Assembly (NCBI GenBank): GCA_918797485.1
Contig: CAKKNE010000003.1
Location: forward strand, 3,410,001 to 3,474,000
Length of the DNA stretch: 64,000 nt
Direction of reading: 5' to 3'
Source of the DNA: Pelagomonas calceolata
Lineage: Eukaryota
Both the position numbers and the translations under genes were made by a program. Position 1 is the first letter of the stretch, and every line of letters starts with the position of its first letter. Under the pieces are notes generated by a model. The model saw only the letters and a list, made by a program, of their open reading frames with translations. It did not search any database and was not told where the DNA came from. Of the stretch, positions 2,250-17,770 are shown one piece after another.

Positions 2250-5200
2250 ATGACAGACAATCGTCACGCGTACTTCATCCGCTGCATATCCGCAATCTCA
2301 GGAATAGGTCCTAATCCCGTATTTGACAGCCTTGATCCACTTGCAGCTTTTTTGGATGATCCCTCATGTACTGTACTTCGAGCCTGGGTGCGCGAAAATG
2401 GAACGGTCCTTTTGTCGACGCTCTTAACAACAGAGGAAGCAGTAGCATCAACGACGGCTTATCTACAAAACGTTTTATATTGTTCAGTGAATTTTTAATA
2501 AACAAAGATCCCGAATGAGAAAGCATGCCTAGGTTGCATTCGTTAAGCGTCTAGCTGTGTCTCTAAACGCGAACAACTTGACTTCAGCCGTATTGCCGTG
2601 CGTGTCGGTGTTTGAGTAGCTAAAAAACCATTTTTAAATTTCAAAGCCTCGTTTCAGACTCTCACTTGGACGTTTTGGAGCAGCAGTCTCACTGCATGAG
2701 GTACTAAAAGAACTGTATTGCCCGATTCTCTTGTGCGCCGAGGACCCGGAATGCATTCCTCAAAGCGCAAAAGGTCTACTTTTTAGACTTGAGCACTCTT
2801 TGGGCTCCTTCACTGGCCTTCAGAATGACAACCCAGAGGCGCCGAACTGTGTGTGAATATCGTTTTTAGAAAAAACGTCAACATTCTACTAACTAGATGT
2901 CTCCCTCCCTTGAGTCCTTTGTCAACATCAAGTCGGTGATTGACGAAATTGACCTTTGGAACAATACGCGATCATCAATGGGCTTCGATGGTGATCTTAT
3001 TCATAGCGTTGCTAGTGCGCTTGAGCCATTGCGGAAGTGGTTCGACACTTTGGAAATGCCCCCGTGGTCGCAAGCAGGTGAGTTTATAGACCAGGTTATG
3101 GACAGCCTAGATCGCATCTGGAAAGCGGAGGGTCGTGGATCACAAGTGTAATGCCCCAGTCCCTAATCATGAGTTTACCATATGCACCAACAGGTACCCC
3201 GAAAGCCGCATGCGCCATCTCCTGGATATCATGAGCAGTACCGTGGGTCAAAGTGTGCAGCGTGAGCTTAGGGCCATCGGCATCTGGGAAGAAGGATTTG
3301 CAAAGGTCCGGCCAGAACTAATTTCAGGTCTTCGTCTGTGCGAGAGCTGGTGCAAGGCATGCGAAGAGTTGATATTCCTCTGGAAGGACAATACCGAAGG
3401 GCGCTCTTGGGTTGGCTTTGACTATAAAGATGAATTTGTGTTGCTATTAGGACACCGGCTACAAGAAATACTCACACTCCGTCAAACGCGCGAAGAGTTA
3501 AGTCGTCTACTTAGTGGAGATTTTGACACGGAGAATGATCAGAAGCAGATGCAAAATGCTCGCAGTGCAACTTTGGTAGGCTCGCTGGGCAAGTATTTTG
3601 CTGGGATAGACCCTCTGCTGTGCAGTCACCACACCGACTCTGCCTGGTCTTCATTTCAGAGCGACGATGCAGTCAAAGAACTTTTGAAGTTCAAGTATGA
3701 TGTACTTAGGCATAGAGCTGTGGAGAAATATGAAAAATCGCTAGCTCCATTGGATTTCCAGATTGCAGCTAATTTTAGGCAGATGATCTCGCCATTGCAT
3801 GAGACCCCACTCCCTCTCCTGCACGAACTTCGGCAATTTAAACATTTGCTTTCGAGATGCAACATTCGCAGAGCACTTGTCAGTGAACGGGAAGCCCTGC
3901 TTCACCAGCTGGTCGATATGATCGAAAATATGGGAGAAAACTTTCATGTATTAATTCATGACGCAATTTGGCTGTGCGTTTTACATGTCCAGATCTAATG
4001 TTGTTACATTAGGCGACCAGTGGGCTGGAAAAATATTCTTGCCTATTGGGCAAGCATGTCAGTGGGATTTTACGTGCCAGGCAAATTTCCTTCCACATTC
4101 AAGATCTTTCTGAGGGGAATGCGCAACTCTTTGGAGACCTTGAGCACGCCAAAGTGCTACTGAGTCTAGGTAGCGAGTTGCAATCTAGATGTCGGAAGAC
4201 AGAGCATGAGCTCTTGGGCGAATGGATTGCAGAGGTCAAGAATGAATTGACAAGTAGCGAGGCTGGCATGTGCACGAAGGGCAAGCTGATGGAAATTTCT
4301 CAGGAGGGCTTACTTATTGTCAACTACTCTTCACGTCTCGTCCAACTACTCCGAGAAGTCAGGCAGTTGACTGAACTAGGTGTGACTGTCCCAGATAGCA
4401 TTAAACAAGCCGCCAAAGATGGTGAGCAATACTATCGATTTGGAGTCGTGCTAAAAAAAGTGGCTTCTTTTTTCAATAGTATGGATACACAGATACTTAA
4501 GACTCAACGCCCAATGCTGTTGAATGCCCTCATGGCATTTGAGGAAATTGTCGAGAAACGCAACACTCATGGAGGGGTCATCGAGTGGAGGACACCAACA
4601 GAGTATGAACGCTACGTTGAGCGGCTCCAGCAAGCAGCAACTAAGCTCGCACATGAAAACCGCCAGCTTCGGCACATTCATCATGAGCTTTCTACCAGTG
4701 TGGTGCTGCTCATGGACATTGACATGCTTAAGCACCGGAGCAAATGGAAGCAGCATTGGCTAGAGATTGTGGGCAGGATAAATGTTCTTTCAGACCGATA
4801 CCCTCAGGATCGAATGCGCAAGTGGGTGATACACTGGGACCATCAGGTCTACAAAGTGCTGGAGGCTGCATATTGTACTGGCTTGGAAACCCTCAATGAA
4901 TCCCTTCAGCTCCCAGAGAGTTTAAAAGTTGAGCTTGGCTTCTTCTCTAGTTCAGAGCAGATGCCCCTTCAACTTAAGCCTAGTGTTGAGGAGATCCGCT
5001 CAATCTATTACCATGAGCTAAAGAAGTTTGTATCAGCTCCCAGTGCATTTAAAGGGCTTAATGGTAGCAACGAAGTCCCTATACGGTGCCTTGATATCGA
5101 ATTCCTGCCCCCAGATTACAAAATAAAAAAATAGGTTTACACCAAAATGGCAGGATCGAATACTCAATCACTAGTTCGCGTCTACATCAAGGCGGAGTTG

Positions 5201-8200
5201 TTGTTTGTTGAACTTTGTAATCTGCTGGAGCAATATGAGTCTTGGAGTAGTCTATGTGCCACGGCGGACCTCGATGCTGTGGTTGAGCTATGTTGCAGCT
5301 CACCAACTTTGTTCGAAACAAACTTCAGAGCGCTCCGGGACAAGCGCCGAGCAGCAGAGAGACTACCTGACTTCATAAAGGTTGATTGTATATGTGTGAG
5401 CCTGGGACCTCTGAAACTAAGTCTTGAAGACAATTTTCAACGTGCCTACGAGACCCTGCTGCTGGTCCTTAAGAGAACCATGACCAATGATATAAACGAG
5501 GTAACACATTTGATTACTGATTTCGCTCCATTGTATATTACCAATAGGTCAAAGCATACCTAACAGAGTCCACAGAAATGCTTTCCTCACGACCCCAGTC
5601 TGTTGAAGACATCACCATCGCTCAAAAGAACTGGCGAGAGATTGATGGTCGTCGAGATAACATGCAAGCAAAGAGCAAGGGGCTCTTGGACCTTGGATCA
5701 ATTCTCGGTCTGCATGCAACTGGGACTCACACTGACACTGCCAGCCTTTCTGGTAAAGCAAGCAGTCTTTCAGCTCGCTGGACCGCATTCACTGATCAAA
5801 TGGAAGCCTTCAATGAGATGATTGAGATCCAAAAGGGCACACTCAAAGCTCGACTTGAGGAAAACGTGATCGAACAAAATCAAGCCATAGATAAATTCGC
5901 GGAGCGGTGGCGGGCACTTAAACCTTCAGGTCTTGAACTTTGGGATCTTGATAATGTCCGTAAAACCTTTGATGACCTCAACGAGCCAACTTGCCGCGTC
6001 CTCAAGAGACAGATTGATTACTTTTGATAACTTTTTGTTTGGTACTAGGTGGAAAGCCCAATTGCAAGATTTCAAAGATCGAGCTGATGAGCTAGTAGAG
6101 CATTTTGTCAGCTTCAATATGCCGGTGCCGCCACGATTTGATGGGCTTTCGGTGATTGAATTAGAGATCACAATGTCATCAACTTCTTGGTCCCTGCTAA
6201 GGGATTACCTCAGTGAACTTGATTTGCTTGAAAAACAGGACTGGATCAGTTTCCGGGGCAATATGCATCTGCTACATGACTTGGCAATGAGTTGGAGCGA
6301 CAAGGTCAAAGAGAGAATTGTTGCTGGGCAGGCGGATGCTGTCATGTTGCACCTCTCATCACAATTAGAACGCATTAAGGCTGCAGCAACCACTCTAAAG
6401 TACTGTCACGGGAAAGATTTTAAGGATGAGCACTGGAGTGCCTTGCTTCAGGGTAAGCTTGGTCTCGGGAAGGAAATTAGGCTGGAGTCACTGACCGTTG
6501 GCCACTTTGTGGCTGCCTTGGACAAAGTTTTAGAACCAGCTCTTCTTGTATTTGTCAAGGAGCTTCAGGCTCAAGCACAAGGTGAAGTCCTGGTCCGTGA
6601 CGCACTCCAAGAGCTCTCCGTGTGGTCGCAGACCGCTGAATTAAGTCTTGTGGAGTACAAGGAGCAGGGCAGGAAGACTATGCTCGTCAAAGACTGGGGA
6701 AGAATGTTCTTGGATTTGGGCGACAAGCAATCTCTACTCTCTTCTCTGAAAGAGTCCCAATTCTATCGTGCTTTTGAAAGCATCGGTAAGTGGAGCAACA
6801 TAGCATATGCCATACCCCACACTATTGCTAATTCAGGCGCAAGTTACGAGACTAAAATGTCCAATCTTGACTTCGTTCTCCATGCGCTTAACACGGTACA
6901 GAGGAAATGGGTTTACCTTGAGCCTATATTTGCCCGAGGAGGCCTTCCAAATGAGAGTAAGCGTTTTCGGGGCGTGGATGAGGACTTCCGAGAGATAATG
7001 TGCCTTGTAGAAGTAGATCAAAAATTGTTTTCAACTGCGTTTCTTGAATGGGCTTTGTGGTTTCATGCGTCCATCATTCGTGCCTCTCAGGTTCAATCTG
7101 GTTGACCCACACGTGCATCATGACATCAAAAGAACCTTGCAGACAATGCTGGAACAGCTTGAATGGTGTCAAAAGGCACTGTGCAATTTCTTGGAAGAAA
7201 AAAGGGCTAAATTCCCACGATTTTACTTTATCGGGGATGATGATCTCCTGGAGATTCTGGGACAGGCCCAGAATCCGGCAGTGATTCAAGCGCATTTAAA
7301 AAAACTGTTCCAGGGTACAACTACAGTACGGTTCAATAAAACAATGACAAAAATCCAGAGCATGGTCTCGGCAGCCGGTGAGGTAGTTGACCTGGATCAT
7401 GCTGTGGCAACCTCTGACCGGGTCGAGGACTGGCTCTCGGCCTTTGCCGACGAGATGAAATCCACTCTTGCTTCGCTACTGGCTTCCTACTTACTATCAT
7501 TGACGAAGACAGGCGAAGTAAACTTTGAAATGTACCCTTCGCAAGTCATGTGCATCGGAGAATTGGTGCAGTTTACCGACAGTGTTGAGTCATCTATTGG
7601 GAACGGTTTCACTGATTTGCTTATCAAGGTCAAGTCTCAACTTGCAGCTCTTACAAATCAGGACTTATCGGCAATGCCAGTGGTGCAGATTAAAGTCAAA
7701 GCCCTTGTTATGGATCTAGTACATAACTTGGGTATTTTAGAACATCTGGATTCCGCCAGATGCTGTCACGTGCACGACTGGGCTTGGCGCAAGCAGCTGC
7801 GATATTACGTGAGAAATATGAAATATATTGCAGCAAATGTCTGTATGTCAGATGGCGCCTTTTTGTACACCTATGAATATCAAGGAAATGCAGCGAAACT
7901 TGTTCACACACCATTGACAGATAGATGCTACCTAACATTAGTACAGGGAATGCACATGGGTTTTGGCGGCAACCCGTACGGTCCAGCTGGCACCGGAAAG
8001 ACCGAATCTGTTAAGGCTCTTGGTAATGCCTTTGGTAGGCAGGTCTTGGTGTTCAATTGTTTCGATGAGTCACACCAACTTCTGACAAATAGAGGCTTTA
8101 TGTTTCTCAATGAGATTGAGGCACTTCATAGCTCGGGCTTGCTCTTTGCAACCTACGAATGGTCATCCAAGAAGCTGCTATATGCGGGTTTGACCCACCT

Positions 8201-11200
8201 CGTAAAGACAAGGGACACAAATAGGGAGATGGTTGAGTTCATATGTCCCAACGAGGCCAGTAGCTCCTCTGGCGAGGAATGGTGGGGAAATGGCATATCT
8301 CTTGTGGTTACCCCGGATCACAACATGGTAGTGCAAGATAGTTTGCTGGAGAGGGAGACTCTTCGTGCAGAGCCCTTTGCTTCAAGAATGCAGCAGCCAG
8401 AATGGTACATGAAGAAAAGTGCTGTTGAATTGTCCAGAAGTCACACTCGCCTTCAATTTCTGACTTGCGCGCGGGAGGGCATCGATGTGCCAAAGAACTC
8501 ATCATTGGCACAGTATATTGATGCAAAACTTAAGTCACTTCGCATCGACCCTAGAAAGGAAAACCGGGTGGTGGCATTCCTGGAGTTCTATGGCTTCTGG
8601 CACGATAATAGTTTCGTCATTTTCCGTGAGAACAAAAAGGCATGTGCTCTCTGTAGCTACGCATGTAAGCAGACCGAAATGGAATTCCTAAAAAAACGGT
8701 TAACGCTTCTGGGGGTAGCATTTCATATCATTGTGATTGGCAGAGGATGGCACATATATATTGATGACTTGCACTATTTGTCCTGCTTTGTCGTCAAGCT
8801 TGGGCGATGTTGCCAGCAAAACCAAATTGTTGGGCACTGTCAAGTGACCGACTCGGGCGAACTTTCCCAGGTCGAGCAAAATAAGACATTAAGAACTTTT
8901 AGCAAATACACTGATATGAAAGCCTGCGCATGCAGAACCTCTGATGGAGATGACGCGCGATGTATTGGTGTATATTTTAGCCTTTTTGTTGGTGATGTCC
9001 ACTGCAGTCAAGTGCGTCTGATATTCTCCCGATGCCAACTGCCAAGCGACCTGGAAGGCCAGATGTTGGGCCTGGTAGGACAGTCACTACAAGATCTAAT
9101 GCCTAAATACATTTCAATGCCTTTGGTATGCTACCCTTTTGCTATTCGAACTCGGGGGTGGAATAACTTCTCTAGGATGGCCTCATTTTTATCAAACGAG
9201 GATGCGGAGCCGTCACAACGGCTATTAATCAATGTGAACAATACCCAGACCTGTGCTTATAACAGAGAAAGATTTGTAGAAAAAACAACCAATAAGCCTG
9301 GCGAAATTCGCCCTGGACTGTTGTTAAGGCAGCTGCCCTGCTGGGTCTTTCACCTCACAAGATCAAAAGCAAGAGCAGTCCTGACCGGCATCTGCGTCGC
9401 CTACGGCCATCATTGTGGGACTCAAAGTAGTATCCAAGTCGTCGGAGATAGGATTCGTGATCAACTCGTGTGTCTTGCCTTGCATGCCGGGTGGTCAACG
9501 CATTTCACTTATGATGGCTGCAACAGCCGTGAGTCCCACCCACCAAGTTCAGATACCTGGTGTGTCGTTTATCTCACAGATATGTGTTGTTTGGATGCAA
9601 CAATTCACACCAGAAGTAGTGAACACTCACTTACAACAATTGATCACGCACGCAGGAACGGATTGGCAATTCCATCAAAGGTACGAACCATCAAATATAC
9701 AGGGCAAACGTGGTGTGTTAATGTTCCAAAATATCATTTTGTAGTTGTGCGTCGAGCACGAAGAGATGCCCAAGGACGAGTAGTTCTGGCCTCAGTGCCA
9801 ACGATTCAAGGAAACTGCGATGAAGGCATCGACTTTCATAGCATGGGGCGCATCTTCATAGGCTTGGTGAAATGTGGTGCCTGGGGATGCTTTGATGAAT
9901 TCAACCGGCTGAAGGAAGACCAACTCAGCGCAATTTCACAGCAGATCCAAGTAATCCAGGACGCGATTAAGGCACGCGCGCCCGTCTTGAGTCTGGTGGG
10001 CAGAGAAATAAATGTCGATTTCAATGCTGGCATATTTGTGACTTTGAATCCTGCCGGTAAGGACTATGGGGGACGATCCCAGATTCCTGATAACCTTAAG
10101 GCCCTTTTTCGTCCCGTTGCCATGGGTCGACCGGACAATGAATTGATCGCCGAAGTTTATTTACAGACAGAGGGATTCACTCAGGCACGTGGCCTTTCAA
10201 AAAAAATAGTGTCCCTATTTATGCTAAGCAAGCAATTATTGAGCCGGCAGCGCCATTATGACTGGGGCCTGAGAGCATTAAAAGCTGTTTTGAATACTGG
10301 AGGCAAACTTCTGGTACAAGCACGAGGAGAAGCGCAGGTGAGTGTCGGGATGGAAGCAGAGCTGCTCATCAAAGCAGTGCGCATAAATACACTTTCGAAG
10401 CTTACATTCAGCGACACATCTTGCTTTCTAGCATTGATTGGGGACATATTTCCTGGTGCGGAATCAAGCGATGTGGCTGGTGGGGAGTTGGAAGTAGCAA
10501 TCCGGAAGGTTATGCAGAGCAAGCCTTTTTCCTTGACTCTAGACGAAACACAGATTTGCAAGATGCTGCAGCTCAAGGAGGCCCTGGACCAGCGAATGGG
10601 TTGTGTTGTGGTTGGTCCTTCTGGATGCGGCAAGTCAACAGTCTGGCGTGTCCTCAAGGCGGCCTTGATTGAAGGTGGTCAGGCTGTTCAAGTACATGTG
10701 ATGAATCCCAAAAGTATGCCAAGACAGCAACTTCTTGGCGAGATGGACATGGACACCCGTGAGTGGACTGATGGCGTACTGACAGACGCAGCGCGCAATG
10801 TAGTCAAGGCACCAGCTGAGGTGCGTTCCTGGATTGTCTGCGACGGAGATGTTGACCCAGAATGGATCGAGTCTCTAAACTCGGTTCTCGATGACAACCA
10901 CTTGCTGACACTGCCCAGTGGCGAAAGAATTTCCTTCGGTGGCAATGTAAATTTCCTCTTCGAGACACATGACCTTCGTTTTGCGTCTCCTGCAACAATA
11001 AGTAGGATGGGAATGATATTCCTCGCCGATGAAGACACCAATAAAAAACGACTCGTTTCAAAGTGGCTGTTGAGTCAAGATAATGCCAACCGTAGTCATC
11101 TTGCAGGTTGGCTTGAAGACATCTTTTACAAAGCGCTGGACTATCTTGTACGCATGCGCTCTTTTGTTGTAGAAACAACACTTGTAGGCACGATTTTGAA

Positions 11201-14200
11201 TGGGCTGTCGTCCATCTCAGGAGTATCCACCAAGCTTTCATTTGTAGTCGGACTCATCCGGGGTCTCGGCGGCAATCTCTCAGCCTCAGATCGATCTTGT
11301 TTTGCAAAAGAAGTGTTTGCCTGGGCCAGAGAACGCCCACCTGACCACAGCGCTCCACTAGACTGTGATGTTGACATTTCAGGTGAGAAGTTATTTAGTT
11401 ACAGTTCACAATTTGGAGATGTTTCCGAGGATGCGGGTAAGGAGCCGAATTCGAAGGAGCAGACTCTGAAAAGTGTAATTGAGACGCCTTTAACCCAACG
11501 AACCATGGCTCAACTGAAGCCATGGATTGAGGCTGCTGAGCCATTTATCATAGTGGGGAATGAAGGCTGCGGCAAGGAACTTATGATTCGACACGCTTTT
11601 GCGCAGCGGCGCAAATTTGTTGTCACAATAATCAATTGCTCTGCTCAGACCAAGGTCGCGCATATAATTGCTAAGATTCAGCAGTGCTGTAGCTTGTTCT
11701 CTGCCTCAGATGGGCGTGTGTACCGTCCACGTGATTGCGAACGACTCATTCTTTATCTGAAAAATCTCAATCTACCCAAACCGGATATATACGGTACCTG
11801 TATGCTGGTTGCTTTCCTTCAACAACTTGTAACCTTCGGGGGGTTTTACGATGCAAACCTGGAGTTTCTCCGCATAGAGGGGGTCCAAATTGTTGCATCA
11901 ATAAACCCAGCAACGACAATTGGCAGACACCCGCTCAGCACGAGATTCACGGCAATAGTCCGGATATACTACCTTGACTACCCTGAGACACACGAACTTT
12001 CGACTATCTATGAGAAGTTATTAGTGATAGCATTCAGGCGAGTCATTGCTGAGGGAGGAGCAGAAGTTGCTTCAAATTTGGCAAAGTTTATGAAGCTGGA
12101 GGAACGCACTAAGCTAGCGACGACTCTTGTTGAGATATATGAAAAGATCAAGGCAACATTTCTGGTCGACGATGCAAGGCATTACCTATTTACGCCACGG
12201 GATTTGTCTGCGTGGGTAAAGAATCTCTCCCAGTACGACCTTGGCGGTGAGGACCTCCTTGATGTAATTTCGTATGAGGGATCCAGGATATTCAGAGACC
12301 GCATGGTTGACGAGGAGAGTGAAACAAAACTGGATAGTATTGTACGCACTATCCTTCGGTCTAAATTTCATTTTGTTCCCTCGCTGACCGATATACATTT
12401 TACAACAATGGGCTTGGCAGCCATTGGTGGTCACACTAAATACTCCAAGCAGCAGCGGTCTGAATCTAGTGGCACTGATAGTCTGAACACGCCATTGCTT
12501 GTGCGCACCACTCGAACGGAATTTCAGTCCTATGTGCAAAAAGGAATTGAACACTACGAGCGCGAGACTGCTGAGCTTAACATGCTTTTATTTCCCCAGA
12601 TTCTCGAGCATATATCTCGAGTAGATCGCGTCATCTCTAGTCCTGGCGGCAACCTGCTGCTCATTGGACGAAGCGGAGTTGGGCGTCGAACGGCAGTCAA
12701 GATCGTATCACATATGCATGGTTTTGGTTTCCACAACCCATCGCTGACCCGCTCCGCTGGTGAGGATGCTATAAGGCATTTCCGATCTGAGCTGAAACCA
12801 GTGTTTCATAGCGTTGCAACAGAAAGGGGTCACTCTATTCTATATTTAGAAGACCACCACTTTACCTGTGAGGCTGTTCTCGAAATTGTCAATTCTATGC
12901 TCTCATCTGGCGAAGTCCCAGGACTATTCAGCAATGAGGAGCTCGAGACCCTTTATGCTTCCATGCGCGAAGCAATGATGGACGAGGGGACAGAAGTAAA
13001 TCCTTACGACTATTTCATTCAACAAATACGCCAATCTATCCATCTTTGCGTGGCAATGGACCCGACTAGCAAAAATTTTGACATTCGCTGTGAATCTAAT
13101 CCCGCCCTTTTCACGAGATGTACAATTCTCTGGATGGGCAAATGGAGCAGATCTAGTATGCGATCCGTGCCAGCTATGATTGATGGAGTTAAATCACTCC
13201 TCTTGGCGGGCAGTTCACCTGATGCCACAGCAGTCCAAAGACTCGACTCAAAAATGAGCATGCAAGGTGGTAAAACAGCAAGCAAGGATGACGACGAGGA
13301 TGTGGCCATGGAAGAACGGCCTGGCGCAAAAAATGACAGAGATGAAAATCTTCTGGAGGCATTGATAAGAATCCACGAATCTGCGGATCTAGCATCTCCA
13401 CGTGAATTTATGGTTTTCCTTGAGAACTGGAAAGTACTTTACAGCCAAATGCAAGTCGGCATTCAGACCAAGTTGAAGCACCTGCAGGCAGGATTGAAAA
13501 AACTTGGCGAAGCATCGATGACCGTGGACTCACTCTCGAATGATGCAGAACTGGAACAGGAAAAGCTCCAAGATGCCCAAAGAGGTGCGGATGAGGCCAT
13601 GGAGATGATAACAAAAACGCTTTCTGAAGCAACAAGCCGTCGTGCTGAGGTGCATGAGCTGCAAAGGGAAGTCAAGGAGAAAGAGGAACATACTATGAAT
13701 CGTCAGGGAGAAATAAAAAATGAATTAAGCTCAATTCAACCTGTGTTAGAAACAGCCAAGGCGGCAGTTGGACAGATAAAGGCTGAGCATCTGAATGAGA
13801 TACGATCACTAAAAATGCCGCCAGAACCGATTGCAGATGTACTTGGCGCGGTACTGAAACTCTTGGGTATATCAGATGTTTCTTGGACTTCAATGAAAAA
13901 GTTTCTTGGAAATCGTGGCGTCAAAGATGAAATATTAAACTACGACGCACGTCGCATAGGAGGTGAGATGCGGAAAGATGTAGCTCGCCTGCTGAAGCAA
14001 AAGGCATCATCCTTCGATCAGGCAGCTATTACTCGTGTGAGTGTGGCAGCAGCTCCGCTAGCAGCATGGGTTAAGGCAAATATTCGTTACAGTGTAGTGC
14101 TAGAAAAAATCCGGCCGCTTGAGAGTGAGTTGTCACAAGCCGAAGATTCTCTGGCAAAGTGCAATCATCGTCTACAGAGATGTGAGGAGGAAATTTTGTC

Positions 14201-17200
14201 GATAGATAATCGAGTGACAGCTTTGAAATCCAAGTTTGGAGAACACACCCGCGAAGCTGAGAAACTCCGGGCACGATTAATGATGGCAGAGGGGACACTG
14301 GCCAAAGCGCAAAATCTCTTAGCCAAGCTTTCCGATGAACACGCACGATGGCAGGACCAGGTCAAAGAATTGAGGCTAGAGTTGGCGGCTCTTCCGCGTC
14401 AGCTGCTTTTGGCTGCAGGTTTTCTTACATATCTGCCACGTTGCCCCGAGGACGCGCGTGAGGCGGCGACAGATGCCTGGAAATTGCATGTTGAAGTTGC
14501 AAACTTTTCATTCAAGCATCTCCTATCAACAGAGTCGCAACTCCTTGCCTGGAAGCAGCTAGGGCTTCCAGATGACCCTCTTTCTCAAGAGAATGCACTT
14601 GTCATTGCGCATAATCCCCACAGCCGCGTGCCTTTTGTGATTGACCCAGCTGATGCGGCCAGAGGTTGGCTTCAGGCACACTATGGTACGGATCCAGCTA
14701 GACCATTAGAATCCATCCAATCAGCCGACACACGATTCACAAATCAGGTGGAACTGGCGGTACGTTTTGGCAAAACCCTCCTTGTCTTTGATGTTGACAC
14801 GCTGGAACCCATGCTCTACCCCATTGTACGGAAAGACATTTTTATGCAAGGTCCTCGCTCTGTTATTTGTCTTGGTGGTAAAATGCTCGACTACAACAAG
14901 AATTTTCGTCTCGTCTTAGCAACGCGCAACCCACAACCAGATCTTCCCCCTGACGCTACTGCTCTTTGTACTTTAATCAACTTCACAGTAACTCGGTCTG
15001 GCCTTAGAGGTCAGCTCCTCGGCATGTCTATCCACCACGAACAGCCCGAACTGGAGATCAAGAAATCGCAGATGCTCAAACAGGAGGAAGATTACAAGAT
15101 CAGACTCGCGGCACTCGAAAAGACTCTGCTTGAAGCTCTTGCTACTGCGGAGGGTGATCTTCTCGAAAATTCACTGTTGATTGAATCTCTATCGCAGACA
15201 AAGGAAGCGTCATGGGAAATTAAAAATGCGCTCTCCGCATCGGCACAGGCGTCGGTAGAACTGGACAAGCAACGCGAAGCATATAAAGGTCTGAGCAGTG
15301 ACTGCTGTCAGCTCTTCTTCCTAGTGCGCAGCCTAGCTGCAATCAATAGCATGTATCATTTTTCTCTTGCATCATTCCTGAGACTCTTTAGGAAAGGGCT
15401 CCTCCAGGGTAAATCCATCGACACAGACGCAACACTCGCGGAGCGCCTGCAGCAACTTACACCTCTCATTGAGCGGCTTGTTTTCTTTTATGTGAGTCGT
15501 GGCCTTTTCAAAGCTGACAGATGTATGTTTGCACTTCATGTTGTTCACGGAATGCACAAGAAACATTTTCAGGCAGGAGAATGGGAGCTGTTTGCCGGTC
15601 TCACTCCCACAAAAGAGGGAGTATGTGACGGTCGTCCACTTGATCTTCCTTGTTGGGCAGGGCACGATCGAATGGCAGCTTTCTCCAACATGAGTACGCA
15701 ACTTGGCGCGCTTGTCAGCGAGCTGGACCTTAAAAACACTACAAGGTGGAGCCACTGGGCAAAATCCCCAGAGTGTGAGAGGGAATTTCCAGCTGAAATA
15801 ATGCGCAAATGCACGCCGTTCCAGCGAGTTTTAATTACACAATGCTTCCGTCCGGATAGGCTCACAACTGTTTTGCATGCTTTTGCTTGTGAAATCCTGC
15901 AGATCTCCGCACTTGCGCCTCCATCATTGAATTTTGACCAGCTCCACAAGCAGGAAACCGAGGCCAATCTGCCAATTCTTCTCATCACAACAGCCGGTGC
16001 CGATCCGAGCAAAGAACTGGCTGATTTTTCAGCCACTGTCGTTGGCAGGAATCGATTCAAATCCTTAGCAATGGGTGGAGGTACGCATGATTTGGCAATG
16101 TCACTTTTGAGAGAGACGAGCTCTGAAGGGGATTGGCTTTGCCTGCAGAACTTGCACCTAGTTGTTGCTTGGCTTCCTTTACTGGAAAAGGCACTTGCCG
16201 TAATCAGTGCGCATGAAGACTTTCGACTGTGGCTCACAACAGAACCCCATACAGCCTTTCCGCACGTATTACTTCAAAAATCGCTCAAAGTGACTTTTGA
16301 GTCTCCTCCAGGAACCAAGAGAAATATGCAGAGGACACTGTCAATCTGGGGTCGTGACTTTTTTGATACTGGTGAATGTCGACACCGCCCTCAGCTTTTA
16401 TTTTGCCTTGCATGGTTACATGCCATCCTACAAGAGCGACGCACATACGTCCCTCAGGGTTGGAGTAAGTTCTACGAGTTCTCAGTAGGAGATCTTCGAG
16501 CTGGAGCCTTCGTTATGGATGCTGCGGCGGCAGCTGCTACCAAATCCGGTGAACTCGACCTTGATGTCGTCCATGGTCTCATAGAAGACGCGATATACGG
16601 TGGACGTATTGACAACCTGCATGATGCACGTGTCCTAAAAGCATACCTTCGCAGAATATTCACTCGAGATGTTATTGAGGGCCGGCTACCCCTTACCCCA
16701 GACTTGTTGGTTCCTATTCCCTGCACATACTCGGCCGCTGTTTCCGCGGTGTCTACTTTAAGCCCTCAGGACACCCCAGCATTATTTGGGCTTCCAAACA
16801 ACATCGAAAAATCGTTACAGCGCACAGCATCTTCACGCGTGAGTGACCAGCTTCGTCAGCTTTATGTGGTTGGTAGTGAGTCCTTGCTGTTTGACCGTGA
16901 GATTTGGCGCTCAAAGCTGGGGCCACTACTGGAACACTGGCAGCACTTGACAGCCAAGTATCCAGCACTCAATGCGAAAGCTTCTCTCGGGGCCTTGAAC
17001 ACTGTCGAACTGAAAAATCCAATTGCTGGCTTTGTTGCCACGGAGATTCTAGCTGCAGAAAGCATTCTCTTGCATGTTTCATCTCAGATGGCTACTCTGA
17101 AAAAGGTAATTTACGGCACAGCTCTCCTAACTCCATTCATCAAGACCACTGCGACATGTCTGTTAATGGGAAATATCCCAAGTACCTGGAGCAACCTGTG

Positions 17201-17770
17201 GGATGGTCCAGATAAGCCCACCACTTGGCTTGCGCTGCTCGTTCACAAGGCGTTTGGCATCAAATCCTGGTCACCAAAGGTACGCCTTAAGATTCCTTTG
17301 TGCGGATACTAATAGATTGCATCTAGGTTCGTGATGGCTCCCTGTTGAAGGACGAGCTGGACCTGAATGACCTGTTTAGACCACTAACGTTCCTGAATTC
17401 TTTGTGCCAACTGACTGCTCGCCAAGCACACTGTCCTATGGATGTTCTCAATTTGGTGTCCGCTTGGTCAAAGAGCTCCATTGTTTCATCCACTTTGGTG
17501 ATCATAAAAAGTCTCATTATGCAAGGTGCAGAAATGAACGGCACGCAGCTTAAAGAGACTTCTAGAGATGCTCCTGAGATCGTTCCGTTGCCTCCTCTTG
17601 TCATTGGGTATTCTAAAGTGGCATTGTCTGACAAAATAAATAGTCTCCAGTTGCCGGTCTACCATGATGCCACTCGCAGGCAATTTCTTTTTGAAATCCA
17701 GCTACCGATCAAGGAAGATGCCGACACGTGGATCCTTTCTGGTGTTGCGATTTTCCTCTCACAAGCTTGA
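2250..17770 (+). CDS. DYNC2H1: Cytoplasmic dynein-2 heavy chain (retrograde IFT dynein), multi-exon, intein-containing
   Basis: ORFs 2250, 2897, 3135, 4046, 5147, 5578, 5933, 7044 and 17345 join through short introns, e.g. 3647-3709, 3948-4012, 5075-5134, 5501-5547, 5985-6048, 6786-6836, 7027-7090 and 17280-17326. The 5' introns are approximate. Motifs: YPESRMRHLL, WVYLEPIF, FPRFYFIGDDDLLEILG, AAA1 GPAGTGKT and CFDEFNRL, AAA2 GPSGCGKS, AAA3 GNEGCGKE, AAA4 GRSGVGRR (dynein-2 type), and a stalk with EIRSLKMPP. Confidence 0.96.
8058..9815 (+). mobile_element. Intein (586 aa) with degenerate LAGLIDADG-type homing endonuclease region, inserted in dynein AAA1
   Basis: In-frame insertion between VLVFN and CDEGIDF. 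Block A CFDESHQLLTNRGF; block B VVTPDH (TPDH 8310-8321); block F YTGQTWCVNVP; block G TIQGN followed by extein Cys+1. Endonuclease-like blocks are FLEFYGFWHD, LPCWVFHL..ARAVLTGICVAYG and IRDQLVCLALHAGWS. Confidence 0.93.

Follow-up and report, generated by a model that had tools for sequence, protein, structure and literature searches.

The gene for the heavy chain of cytoplasmic dynein-2, the motor that as a rule returns cargo along the flagellum, in Pelagomonas calceolata lies on contig CAKKNE010000003.1 (assembly GCA_918797485.1), in a stretch of 64,000 nucleotides (positions 3,410,001 to 3,474,000, forward strand) that was analysed as a whole and is called the window here. Within its AAA1 domain the gene carries an in-frame insert of 586 codons, which our data support as a predicted class 1 intein. 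The features of the gene and of the insert, in window coordinates, are the following.

3135..17770 (+): multi-exon dynein-2 heavy chain gene, minimal span, with DHC_N1 and DHC_N2 in upstream open reading frames (ORFs) and Dynein_C at 17327-17770; block of about 48% GC
5075..7090 (+): five short spliceosomal introns upstream of the intein, with skips of 60, 47, 64, 51 and 64 nt and joints 5074/5135, 5498/5546, 5984/6049, 6784/6836 and 7026/7091
7091..17312 (+): main dynein-2 exon (linker end, AAA1-6, stalk) by Pfam dynein domains; the 5' end is from RNA joints, the 3' end is the ORF stop rather than a mapped exon end
7980..8003 (+): AAA1 Walker A, GPAGTGKT (N-extein)
8058..9815 (+): predicted intein, 586 aa, Cys1 to Gly585-Asn586, in frame in AAA1 and kept in RNA contigs
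8058..8462 (+): predicted N-terminal Hint part, residues ~1-135, boundary approximate; Cys1 at 8058, Thr85 at 8310, His88 at 8319; predicted local distance difference test score (pLDDT) mostly >90
8463..8816 (+): predicted LAGLIDADG-type endonuclease, first half, boundary approximate; catalytic Asp position is Asn184 (8607)
8817..9314 (+): variable linker of ~166 aa, nearly neutral, low confidence in the model
9315..9587 (+): predicted LAGLIDADG-type endonuclease, second half, boundary approximate; catalytic Asp position is Tyr449 (9402)
9660..9815 (+): predicted C-terminal Hint part; block F Cys553 at 9714, block G ending in Gly-Asn with Asn586 at 9813
9816..9818 (+): Cys+1 of the C-extein, a conserved dynein Cys, residue 857 of 4RH7_A
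9888..9908 (+): AAA1 Walker B, CFDEFNR (C-extein)

The host is a dynein-2. The flanks of the insert match the Pfam model DYNC2H1_AAA_dom (PF21264) at E 3.7e-32, and in a comparison with solved structures human DYNC2H1 chains come first, at 1e-33 and 1e-44. The next dyneins reach 1e-23 and 1e-31, which leaves the human dynein-2 chains ahead by at least 10 orders of magnitude.

The insert spans 1758 nt and is free of stop codons throughout, whereas none of 2000 shuffles of its bases stayed open, the longest open run being 173 codons. Repeats within it are at chance level only. Reading from Walker A, there follow an 18-residue spacer, the insert, the codon for Cys at 9816 and Walker B from 9888; an earlier note made from the sequence alone had given these coordinates and motifs, and all of them hold. 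The same note placed the insert in ORF 7044, which does carry it in frame but does not mark the start of the protein: its TTG start falls within the spliced intron 7027-7090, the exon begins at 7091, and the ORF represents the last long exon only. Alignment to DYNC2H1, which the note had named as a check, shows that the exteins abut exactly, the N-extein ending at residue 856 and the C-extein starting at residue 857 of 4RH7_A with neither gap nor overlap. Hence excision of exactly 586 residues restores the dynein motif.

Retention of the insert in messenger RNA was examined in contigs, rather than raw reads, assembled from seven RNA runs of seven studies and from one DNA run. Four of the RNA runs are metatranscriptomes and three had only been guessed to be RNA; these three skip all five short upstream introns, which proves their RNA nature, and the four metatranscriptomes skip the two introns (the last two of the five) that lie within their covered stretch. 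In 7/7 RNA runs a single contig continues ungapped from 7091 across both junctions of the insert, as the earlier note's reading called for, and in the DNA run a contig spans the locus unspliced. The introns skipped in the same contigs serve as an internal control and identify these contigs as spliced mRNA. Among the five introns, 5985-6048 is of the GC..AG type and the other four are GT..AG; all are 47-64 nt long.

That the segment is itself an intron or an artefact of assembly is scarcely credible on these data. Such a reading could draw on the lack of any hidden Markov model (HMM) match for the insert, and on a weak joint from 8017 to 9924 (80% likeness) in one metatranscriptome; the latter, however, lies off the junctions, does not account for 148 nt and agrees with a dynein from another organism that has no intein. 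No joint from 8057 to 9816 was found in the contigs of the seven RNA runs, and the ends of the insert cannot be read as GT..AG. Furthermore, the full insert occurs in eight further loci at 82-100% identity, and independent assemblies and diverged species carry it at the same codon. An intron or a misassembly is thereby refuted.

Splicing residues and predicted fold

The insert begins with Cys1, contains a block B of the form T85-x-x-H88 and a block F with TWCV, and ends with Gly585-Asn586 ahead of the extein Cys. The earlier note recognised these splicing motifs correctly but did not record the decayed two-motif LAGLIDADG endonuclease in the middle. Exact restoration of the host, retention in mRNA, Cys1, TxxH, Asn586 followed by Cys and a predicted Hint fold are all as in a class 1 intein; the penultimate His, which is common but not obligatory in that class, is absent. 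Class 3 inteins have no nucleophile at position 1 and carry a Trp(B12)-Cys(F4)-Thr(G5) triplet. The insert does have Cys1, and it carries Met90 at B12 and Gln584 at G5, so only the block F Cys553 fits. Hedgehog and bacterial intein-like domains have a Hint module at a domain boundary without an endonuclease, and their removal does not restore a host motif, whereas here a conserved AAA1 motif is split exactly and the insert has a LAGLIDADG domain of its own.

Relatives were collected with phmmer from 1.84 billion representative sequences, which gave 338 matches at E ≤0.001, and the best 150 of the 338 were examined. A word-index search at near length returned only a fragment of the same intein. 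The family alignment holds 90 inteins, namely 87 cut by pattern from 153 proteins and three partial dynein inteins added by hand. Cys1 is conserved in 87/90 rows, Thr85 in 84/90, His88 in 89/90, Trp552 in 88/90 and Cys553 in 89/90; the terminal residue is Asn in 78/90 and Gln in 12/90, and the penultimate residue is Gly in 81/90. The window intein has Cys1, Thr85, His88, Trp552-Cys553, the terminal Asn and Cys+1. Cys1, Thr85, His88, Cys553, Asn586 and Cys+1 are all kept in the four full-length dynein-2 inteins (that of the window and those of P0154-P0156), at identities down to 33-37%.

A single-sequence AlphaFold model of the insert had a pLDDT of 32 and was unusable. With an alignment of 66 sequences (the insert and 65 phmmer relatives) the mean pLDDT was 70.8 and the predicted template modelling score 0.73, the model being unreliable at residues 252-419 (pLDDT <50) and 513-523. 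Among solved structures its top match is the TliVMA intein 7QSU (E 1.7e-9, Z 22.8), followed by PhoVMA and PI-SceI (Z 17). Hint-only inteins match at Z 13-15.6 with root-mean-square deviations of 2.2-2.8 (best Z 15.6, 2.2 over 146 residues), which bears out, at the level of a predicted model, the Hint fold that the earlier note had expected. Against residues ~167-510 of the model I-DmoI scores Z 12.2, and complete inteins match at Z 16-23, pointing to a two-motif LAGLIDADG fold inside the Hint domain. In addition, 7/66 relatives match LAGLIDADG_3, and the Atlas neighbours carry LAGLIDADG families. Collectively, the exact restoration of the exteins at 856/857 of 4RH7_A, the retention in mRNA, the predicted Hint fold and the kept splicing residues support the insert as a class 1 intein in AAA1 of dynein-2, as the earlier note had proposed.

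Inheritance and selection at the AAA1 site

Among the best 120 of 616 matches, 119 proteins are dynein-2-like. Four of these (P0153-P0156) have an insert of 567-586 aa at the same codon, 114 have an empty site (113 by pattern and one by eye) and one does not include the region. A fifth dynein-2 carrier, the partial P0012, came from the phmmer search. Within the clusters, which are biased towards carriers, the insert is present in all 15 members that span the site (42 members listed). Host trees built from the C-extein place the carriers together with Aureococcus anophagefferens (support 100/97 and 99/98), whose two dynein-2 records, P0168 and P0170, have an empty site. The four complete dynein-2 inteins are monophyletic (100/99) and branch in the order seen in the host tree.

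P0168 and P0170 also show about seven extra residues four codons past the empty site, perhaps a mis-predicted intron adjoining the homing site. That an intron next to an intein site might hinder homing is a point taken up in PMC10710043.

The positions of the catalytic Asp in LAGLIDADG blocks C and E, which we take from PI-SceI-type motifs to be Asn184 and Tyr449, are both substituted in the window intein. Both Asp are also lost in P0154-P0156, with replacements that differ among the relatives, and an acid is kept at both positions in 35/90 family rows. Compared with the sister species (locus L006), the number of synonymous substitutions per synonymous site (dS) is 0.25 for the intein, against 0.23-0.26 for the exteins (Fisher p 0.82); equal dS implies that the two travelled together. 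In the same comparison the ratio of nonsynonymous to synonymous rates (omega) is 0.13-0.16 for the exteins, 0.19 for Hint-N, 0.34 for the whole intein and 0.61 for the nearly neutral linker (Fisher p 0.09). As judged from these sequences, the pattern suggests that the element is an old class 1 intein of the Cre RPB2/ThrRS type that has been passed on vertically and no longer homes.

A number of results weigh against this reading. Pfam and NCBIfam searches with the insert alone gave no match to Hint, intein or LAGLIDADG models even at E 1, so the HMM check that the earlier note had proposed gave no support; a profile search against solved structures likewise found no intein by sequence, with one unrelated match at E 0.61, and the fold thus rests on prediction. 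The penultimate residue is Gly585 where His is usual. Hint-C has an omega of 0.54-0.60, measured over 52 codons. Purifying selection acts on both halves of the endonuclease (omega 0.27-0.29, p 1e-5 against neutrality), where simple decay predicts otherwise; the simplest guess is that the catalytically dead endonuclease may have a folding role in splicing. In approximately unbiased (AU) tests p was 0.33 for P0012 sharing the same insertion event and 0.25 for loss in Aureococcus versus a position outside the carriers. Compared with an allele of the same species (L004, 3001-4758), the intein has 11 amino-acid and 3 silent changes, an omega of ~1.1 that is unlike the exteins. In this one pair the intein has fewer silent changes (3/411 sites versus 23/862 in the exteins, p 0.02) and more replacement changes (11/1347 sites versus 7/2738, p 0.02), which as a comparison of two sequences gives a weak hint of relaxed selection on the intein. 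Finally, no splicing product was observed: 11 of the 17 supplements of PMC13284251, a source without reachable peptide-level data, gave 0 hits.

Some of these results would suit a decayed intein that no longer splices or only cleaves, in which case dynein-2 would work with a looped-out domain of 586 residues, work as two pieces, or be inactive. The missing HMM matches, the absent penultimate His, the omega of Hint-C, the within-species omega near 1 and the lack of direct evidence for splicing all lie in this direction. We nevertheless regard it as improbable, given that none of the six splicing residues, Asn586 and Cys+1 among them, has been lost between inteins that share just 33-37% identity, and that the exteins are under strong purifying selection with Walker A and Walker B intact. 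A large insert between the two Walker motifs should also be poorly tolerated. The Gly-Asn end, for its part, is typical of the group, and is described for the Cre RPB2 and ThrRS inteins, which reside in essential enzymes (PMC1635734).

The purifying selection on the endonuclease halves could instead mean that the intein is still mobile, with an endonuclease that cuts by means of substitute acids (for example Asp183, beside the lost position) and homing that keeps the intein fixed. A homing sweep could also cause the lower silent diversity of the L004 pair. There is little chance of this, however, since neither canonical Asp survives and the replacements vary from one relative to the next, and since the dS between species is the same in intein and exteins. 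An empty allele is moreover absent from all 15 spanning cluster members, from 8/8 loci and from the near-identical contigs of the 8 runs, although contigs drop rare variants.

We therefore return to a splicing intein that has ceased to home. It is, in our judgement, very probable that the insert seen in the spliced mRNA is a class 1 intein, with a predicted Hint domain and a likely dead LAGLIDADG endonuclease, that excises itself and rejoins the two halves of AAA1. Class 1 splicing proceeds by an N-S shift, transfer to Cys+1, cyclisation of Asn and an S-N shift. On the predicted fold, Cys1 would undergo the N-S acyl shift aided by Thr85 and His88, the dynein's own Cys+1 would take over the N-extein, cyclisation of Asn586 would free the intein, and the S-N shift would seal the bond to give native dynein-2, its two Walker motifs reunited. 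As for origin and loss of homing, we infer that an intein of the Cre RPB2/ThrRS (Gly-Asn) group may have entered by ectopic homing in an early pelagophyte, after which both endonuclease Asp would have been lost and inheritance would have been vertical. It could have persisted because nothing short of an exact deletion would clear it from a conserved motor's catalytic core. With the insert between Walker A and Walker B the unspliced motor is likely to be inactive, which would place the splicing residues under selection and make loss rare. The dependence of flagellar function on intein splicing, which the earlier note had put forward, is on this basis a reasonable inference. A further step, which we consider unlikely, would be that the intein has been domesticated as a conditional gate that is fixed in a pelagophyte clade and does not home, while selection still preserves its endonuclease fold, so that dynein-2 and flagellar assembly are switched on only when redox state, metal or temperature permits splicing.

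Genomic setting and the wider family

The window has a sharp step in GC content near 22 kb, from 48% in 1-21900 to 68% in 22001-64000 (up to 89% in 1-kb windows), and the dynein-2 gene sits in the low-GC block. Low-GC, centromere-bearing blocks (52% versus 63%) that are enriched in dynein genes have been described for Pelagomonas calceolata, and the dynein-2 block of the window resembles these centromeric regions (PMC9481584). The annotation from that work, as far as it is accessible, lists one dynein-2 gene, with no intein term in its row (PMC9481584). The host belongs to a 90% cluster with 841 database members and is abundant in marine samples.

Between 20102 and 61680 the neighbours of the dynein gene are ordinary eukaryotic genes, namely those for PP2A B56, Dis3, EDRF1, a SAP-domain protein, ORC5, a kinase, a sulfatase, a TPR-MYND protein and a DHHC enzyme; 13 of the 18 neighbour ORFs scanned have a Pfam match. 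Searched with a profile of 87 family inteins, the 64-kb window showed no further member.

Outside the window the relatives of the intein occupy a wide range of hosts. The flanks of the matches P0003-P0152 belong to very many unrelated proteins, and the insertion is nearly always before a Cys. A rough rule of flank similarity gives about 58 site groups among 86 inteins, and in 40 matches chosen for differing flanks a Pfam host was recognised in 34, from 31 families. The hosts include kinases, phosphatases, HECT and OTU enzymes, MYST, G-alpha, UPF1, KIN17, tRNA synthetases, MCM, RPB2 and DNA polymerase B. The Hint domain of this family has no Pfam model. The family records are mostly single-member and could stem from a small number of genomes rich in inteins.

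Other dyneins are among these hosts. Family inteins occupy the same AAA1 site in P0023 and P0065 (by Pfam) and in P0109 (by motif), and they are also found in AAA4 (P0011), AAA6 (P0113) and AAA3 (P0081, by motif only). Monophyly of all AAA1-site inteins, from dynein-2 and axonemal dyneins together, was rejected in two of three AU tests (p 0.011 and 0.026, and 0.079 without P0012 and P0109), under LG+G4 without a mixture model. From these trees it is likely that the AAA1 site was invaded twice, the axonemal inteins stemming from a separate invasion. A search of long proteins with a 32-sequence profile gave 5 matches among 4090 candidates and no named dynein, which is weak evidence.

Two further records have unusual arrangements. 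P0113 carries at residues 88-491 a second, unrelated intein of the VMA type (Hom_end_hint, E 4e-16), inserted in the Walker A just after AAA1. In P0003, an MCM protein, two family inteins adjoin each other within residues 475-1988, the second starting directly after the Asn of the first; nesting, a tandem arrangement or an artefact of the gene model could account for this.

Overall, we think it probable that the window intein is the member, in a culturable alga, of a large family that Pfam does not see and that has spread by ectopic homing to dozens of unrelated nuclear proteins of protists, far exceeding the 15 gene families counted outside Anaeramoeba, and that has hit the dynein ring repeatedly (AAA1 likely twice, AAA3, AAA4 and AAA6). 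Standard annotation misses these inteins, and the many unrelated hosts among the relatives suggest that counts of eukaryotic inteins are much too low.

The window intein lies in the catalytic domain of dynein-2 in an alga that is likely among the most abundant in the ocean. Cultures, transcriptomes and proteomes of Pelagomonas calceolata make it accessible to testing, and in the accessible part of PMC13284251 dynein proteins of this species are detected in the proteome. The intein raises the questions of whether a motor of 4000 residues is assembled by protein splicing, why the fold of a homing-dead endonuclease is under selection, and whether splicing responds to conditions.

Comparison with known inteins

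The earlier note took a cytoskeletal motor to be an unusual intein host and knew of no characterised example, while allowing that prior reports might exist. They do: in Anaeramoeba, inteins were published in 2023 in the heavy chain of cytoplasmic dynein 1, in axonemal dynein heavy chain 10 (DNAH10) and in a kinesin, with three in one dynein, according to the accessible part of PMC10710043. Nuclear inteins are regarded as rare among eukaryotes. The same portion of that paper gives 45-103 inteins per Anaeramoeba genome, and for eukaryotic nuclear inteins outside Anaeramoeba 15 host gene families with at most 4 inteins per genome (PMC10710043). Like the Anaeramoeba dynein inteins as described there, the window intein is nuclear-encoded and lies in a conserved region of a dynein heavy chain. 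Unlike them, it resides in dynein-2 of a stramenopile alga and not in dynein-1 or DNAH10 of a metamonad, a distinction drawn from the names of the hosts in the accessible text rather than from insertion sites or intein families (PMC10710043). The literature searched, which covers few subscription papers, yielded no dynein-2 intein host and no pelagophyte nuclear intein, and the main text of a large dynein survey has 0 occurrences of 'intein' (PMC5100056).

In predicted architecture, a Hint domain with a two-motif LAGLIDADG endonuclease, the insert resembles TliVMA (7QSU/7QSS), PhoVMA (7QST), PI-SceI (1VDE) and PI-PfuI (1DQ3), with Z 16-23 over ~310-340 residues. It differs from them in sequence, the identity being 11-16% and none of them being found by sequence search, and in the loss of both catalytic Asp. 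The best viral structural matches, in BFVD, are polymerase inteins of giant viruses, namely those of the Pandoravirus inopinatum DNA polymerase (E 1.6e-22) and the Emiliania huxleyi virus RNA polymerase (E 9e-16), at 12-17% identity only. These matches are in line with the virus-mediated spread of inteins that is proposed in the accessible part of PMC10710043. A search of viral contigs for a close relative with the insert as query gave 2 pattern matches, neither confirmed, and one family member had no match among phage records.

A further likeness is to the Cre RPB2 intein of Chlamydomonas reinhardtii and the ThrRS inteins of Candida. In a comparison by eye with the published alignment file, their blocks A, B and F (Cys start, TxxH, WC) are closely like those of the insert, and they share its Gly-Asn end before an extein Cys and its LAGLIDADG domain (PMC1635734). 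The insert thus carries the signatures of this Gly-Asn group in blocks A, B and F and at its end, as judged by eye; the trees used other relatives at RPB2-type and ThrRS-type sites, and hosts of both types are among the matches of the insert. The Cre RPB2 and ThrRS inteins, though non-allelic, are each other's closest relatives, and ectopic movement has been suggested for them (PMC1635734). Unlike these inteins, the insert has dynein AAA1 as its host site, and it is longer, at 586 versus 431 aa, by way of its variable linker. Hence the kind of element and the cytoskeletal motor as its host are already known, and what is new here is dynein-2 as the host and the pelagophyte lineage.

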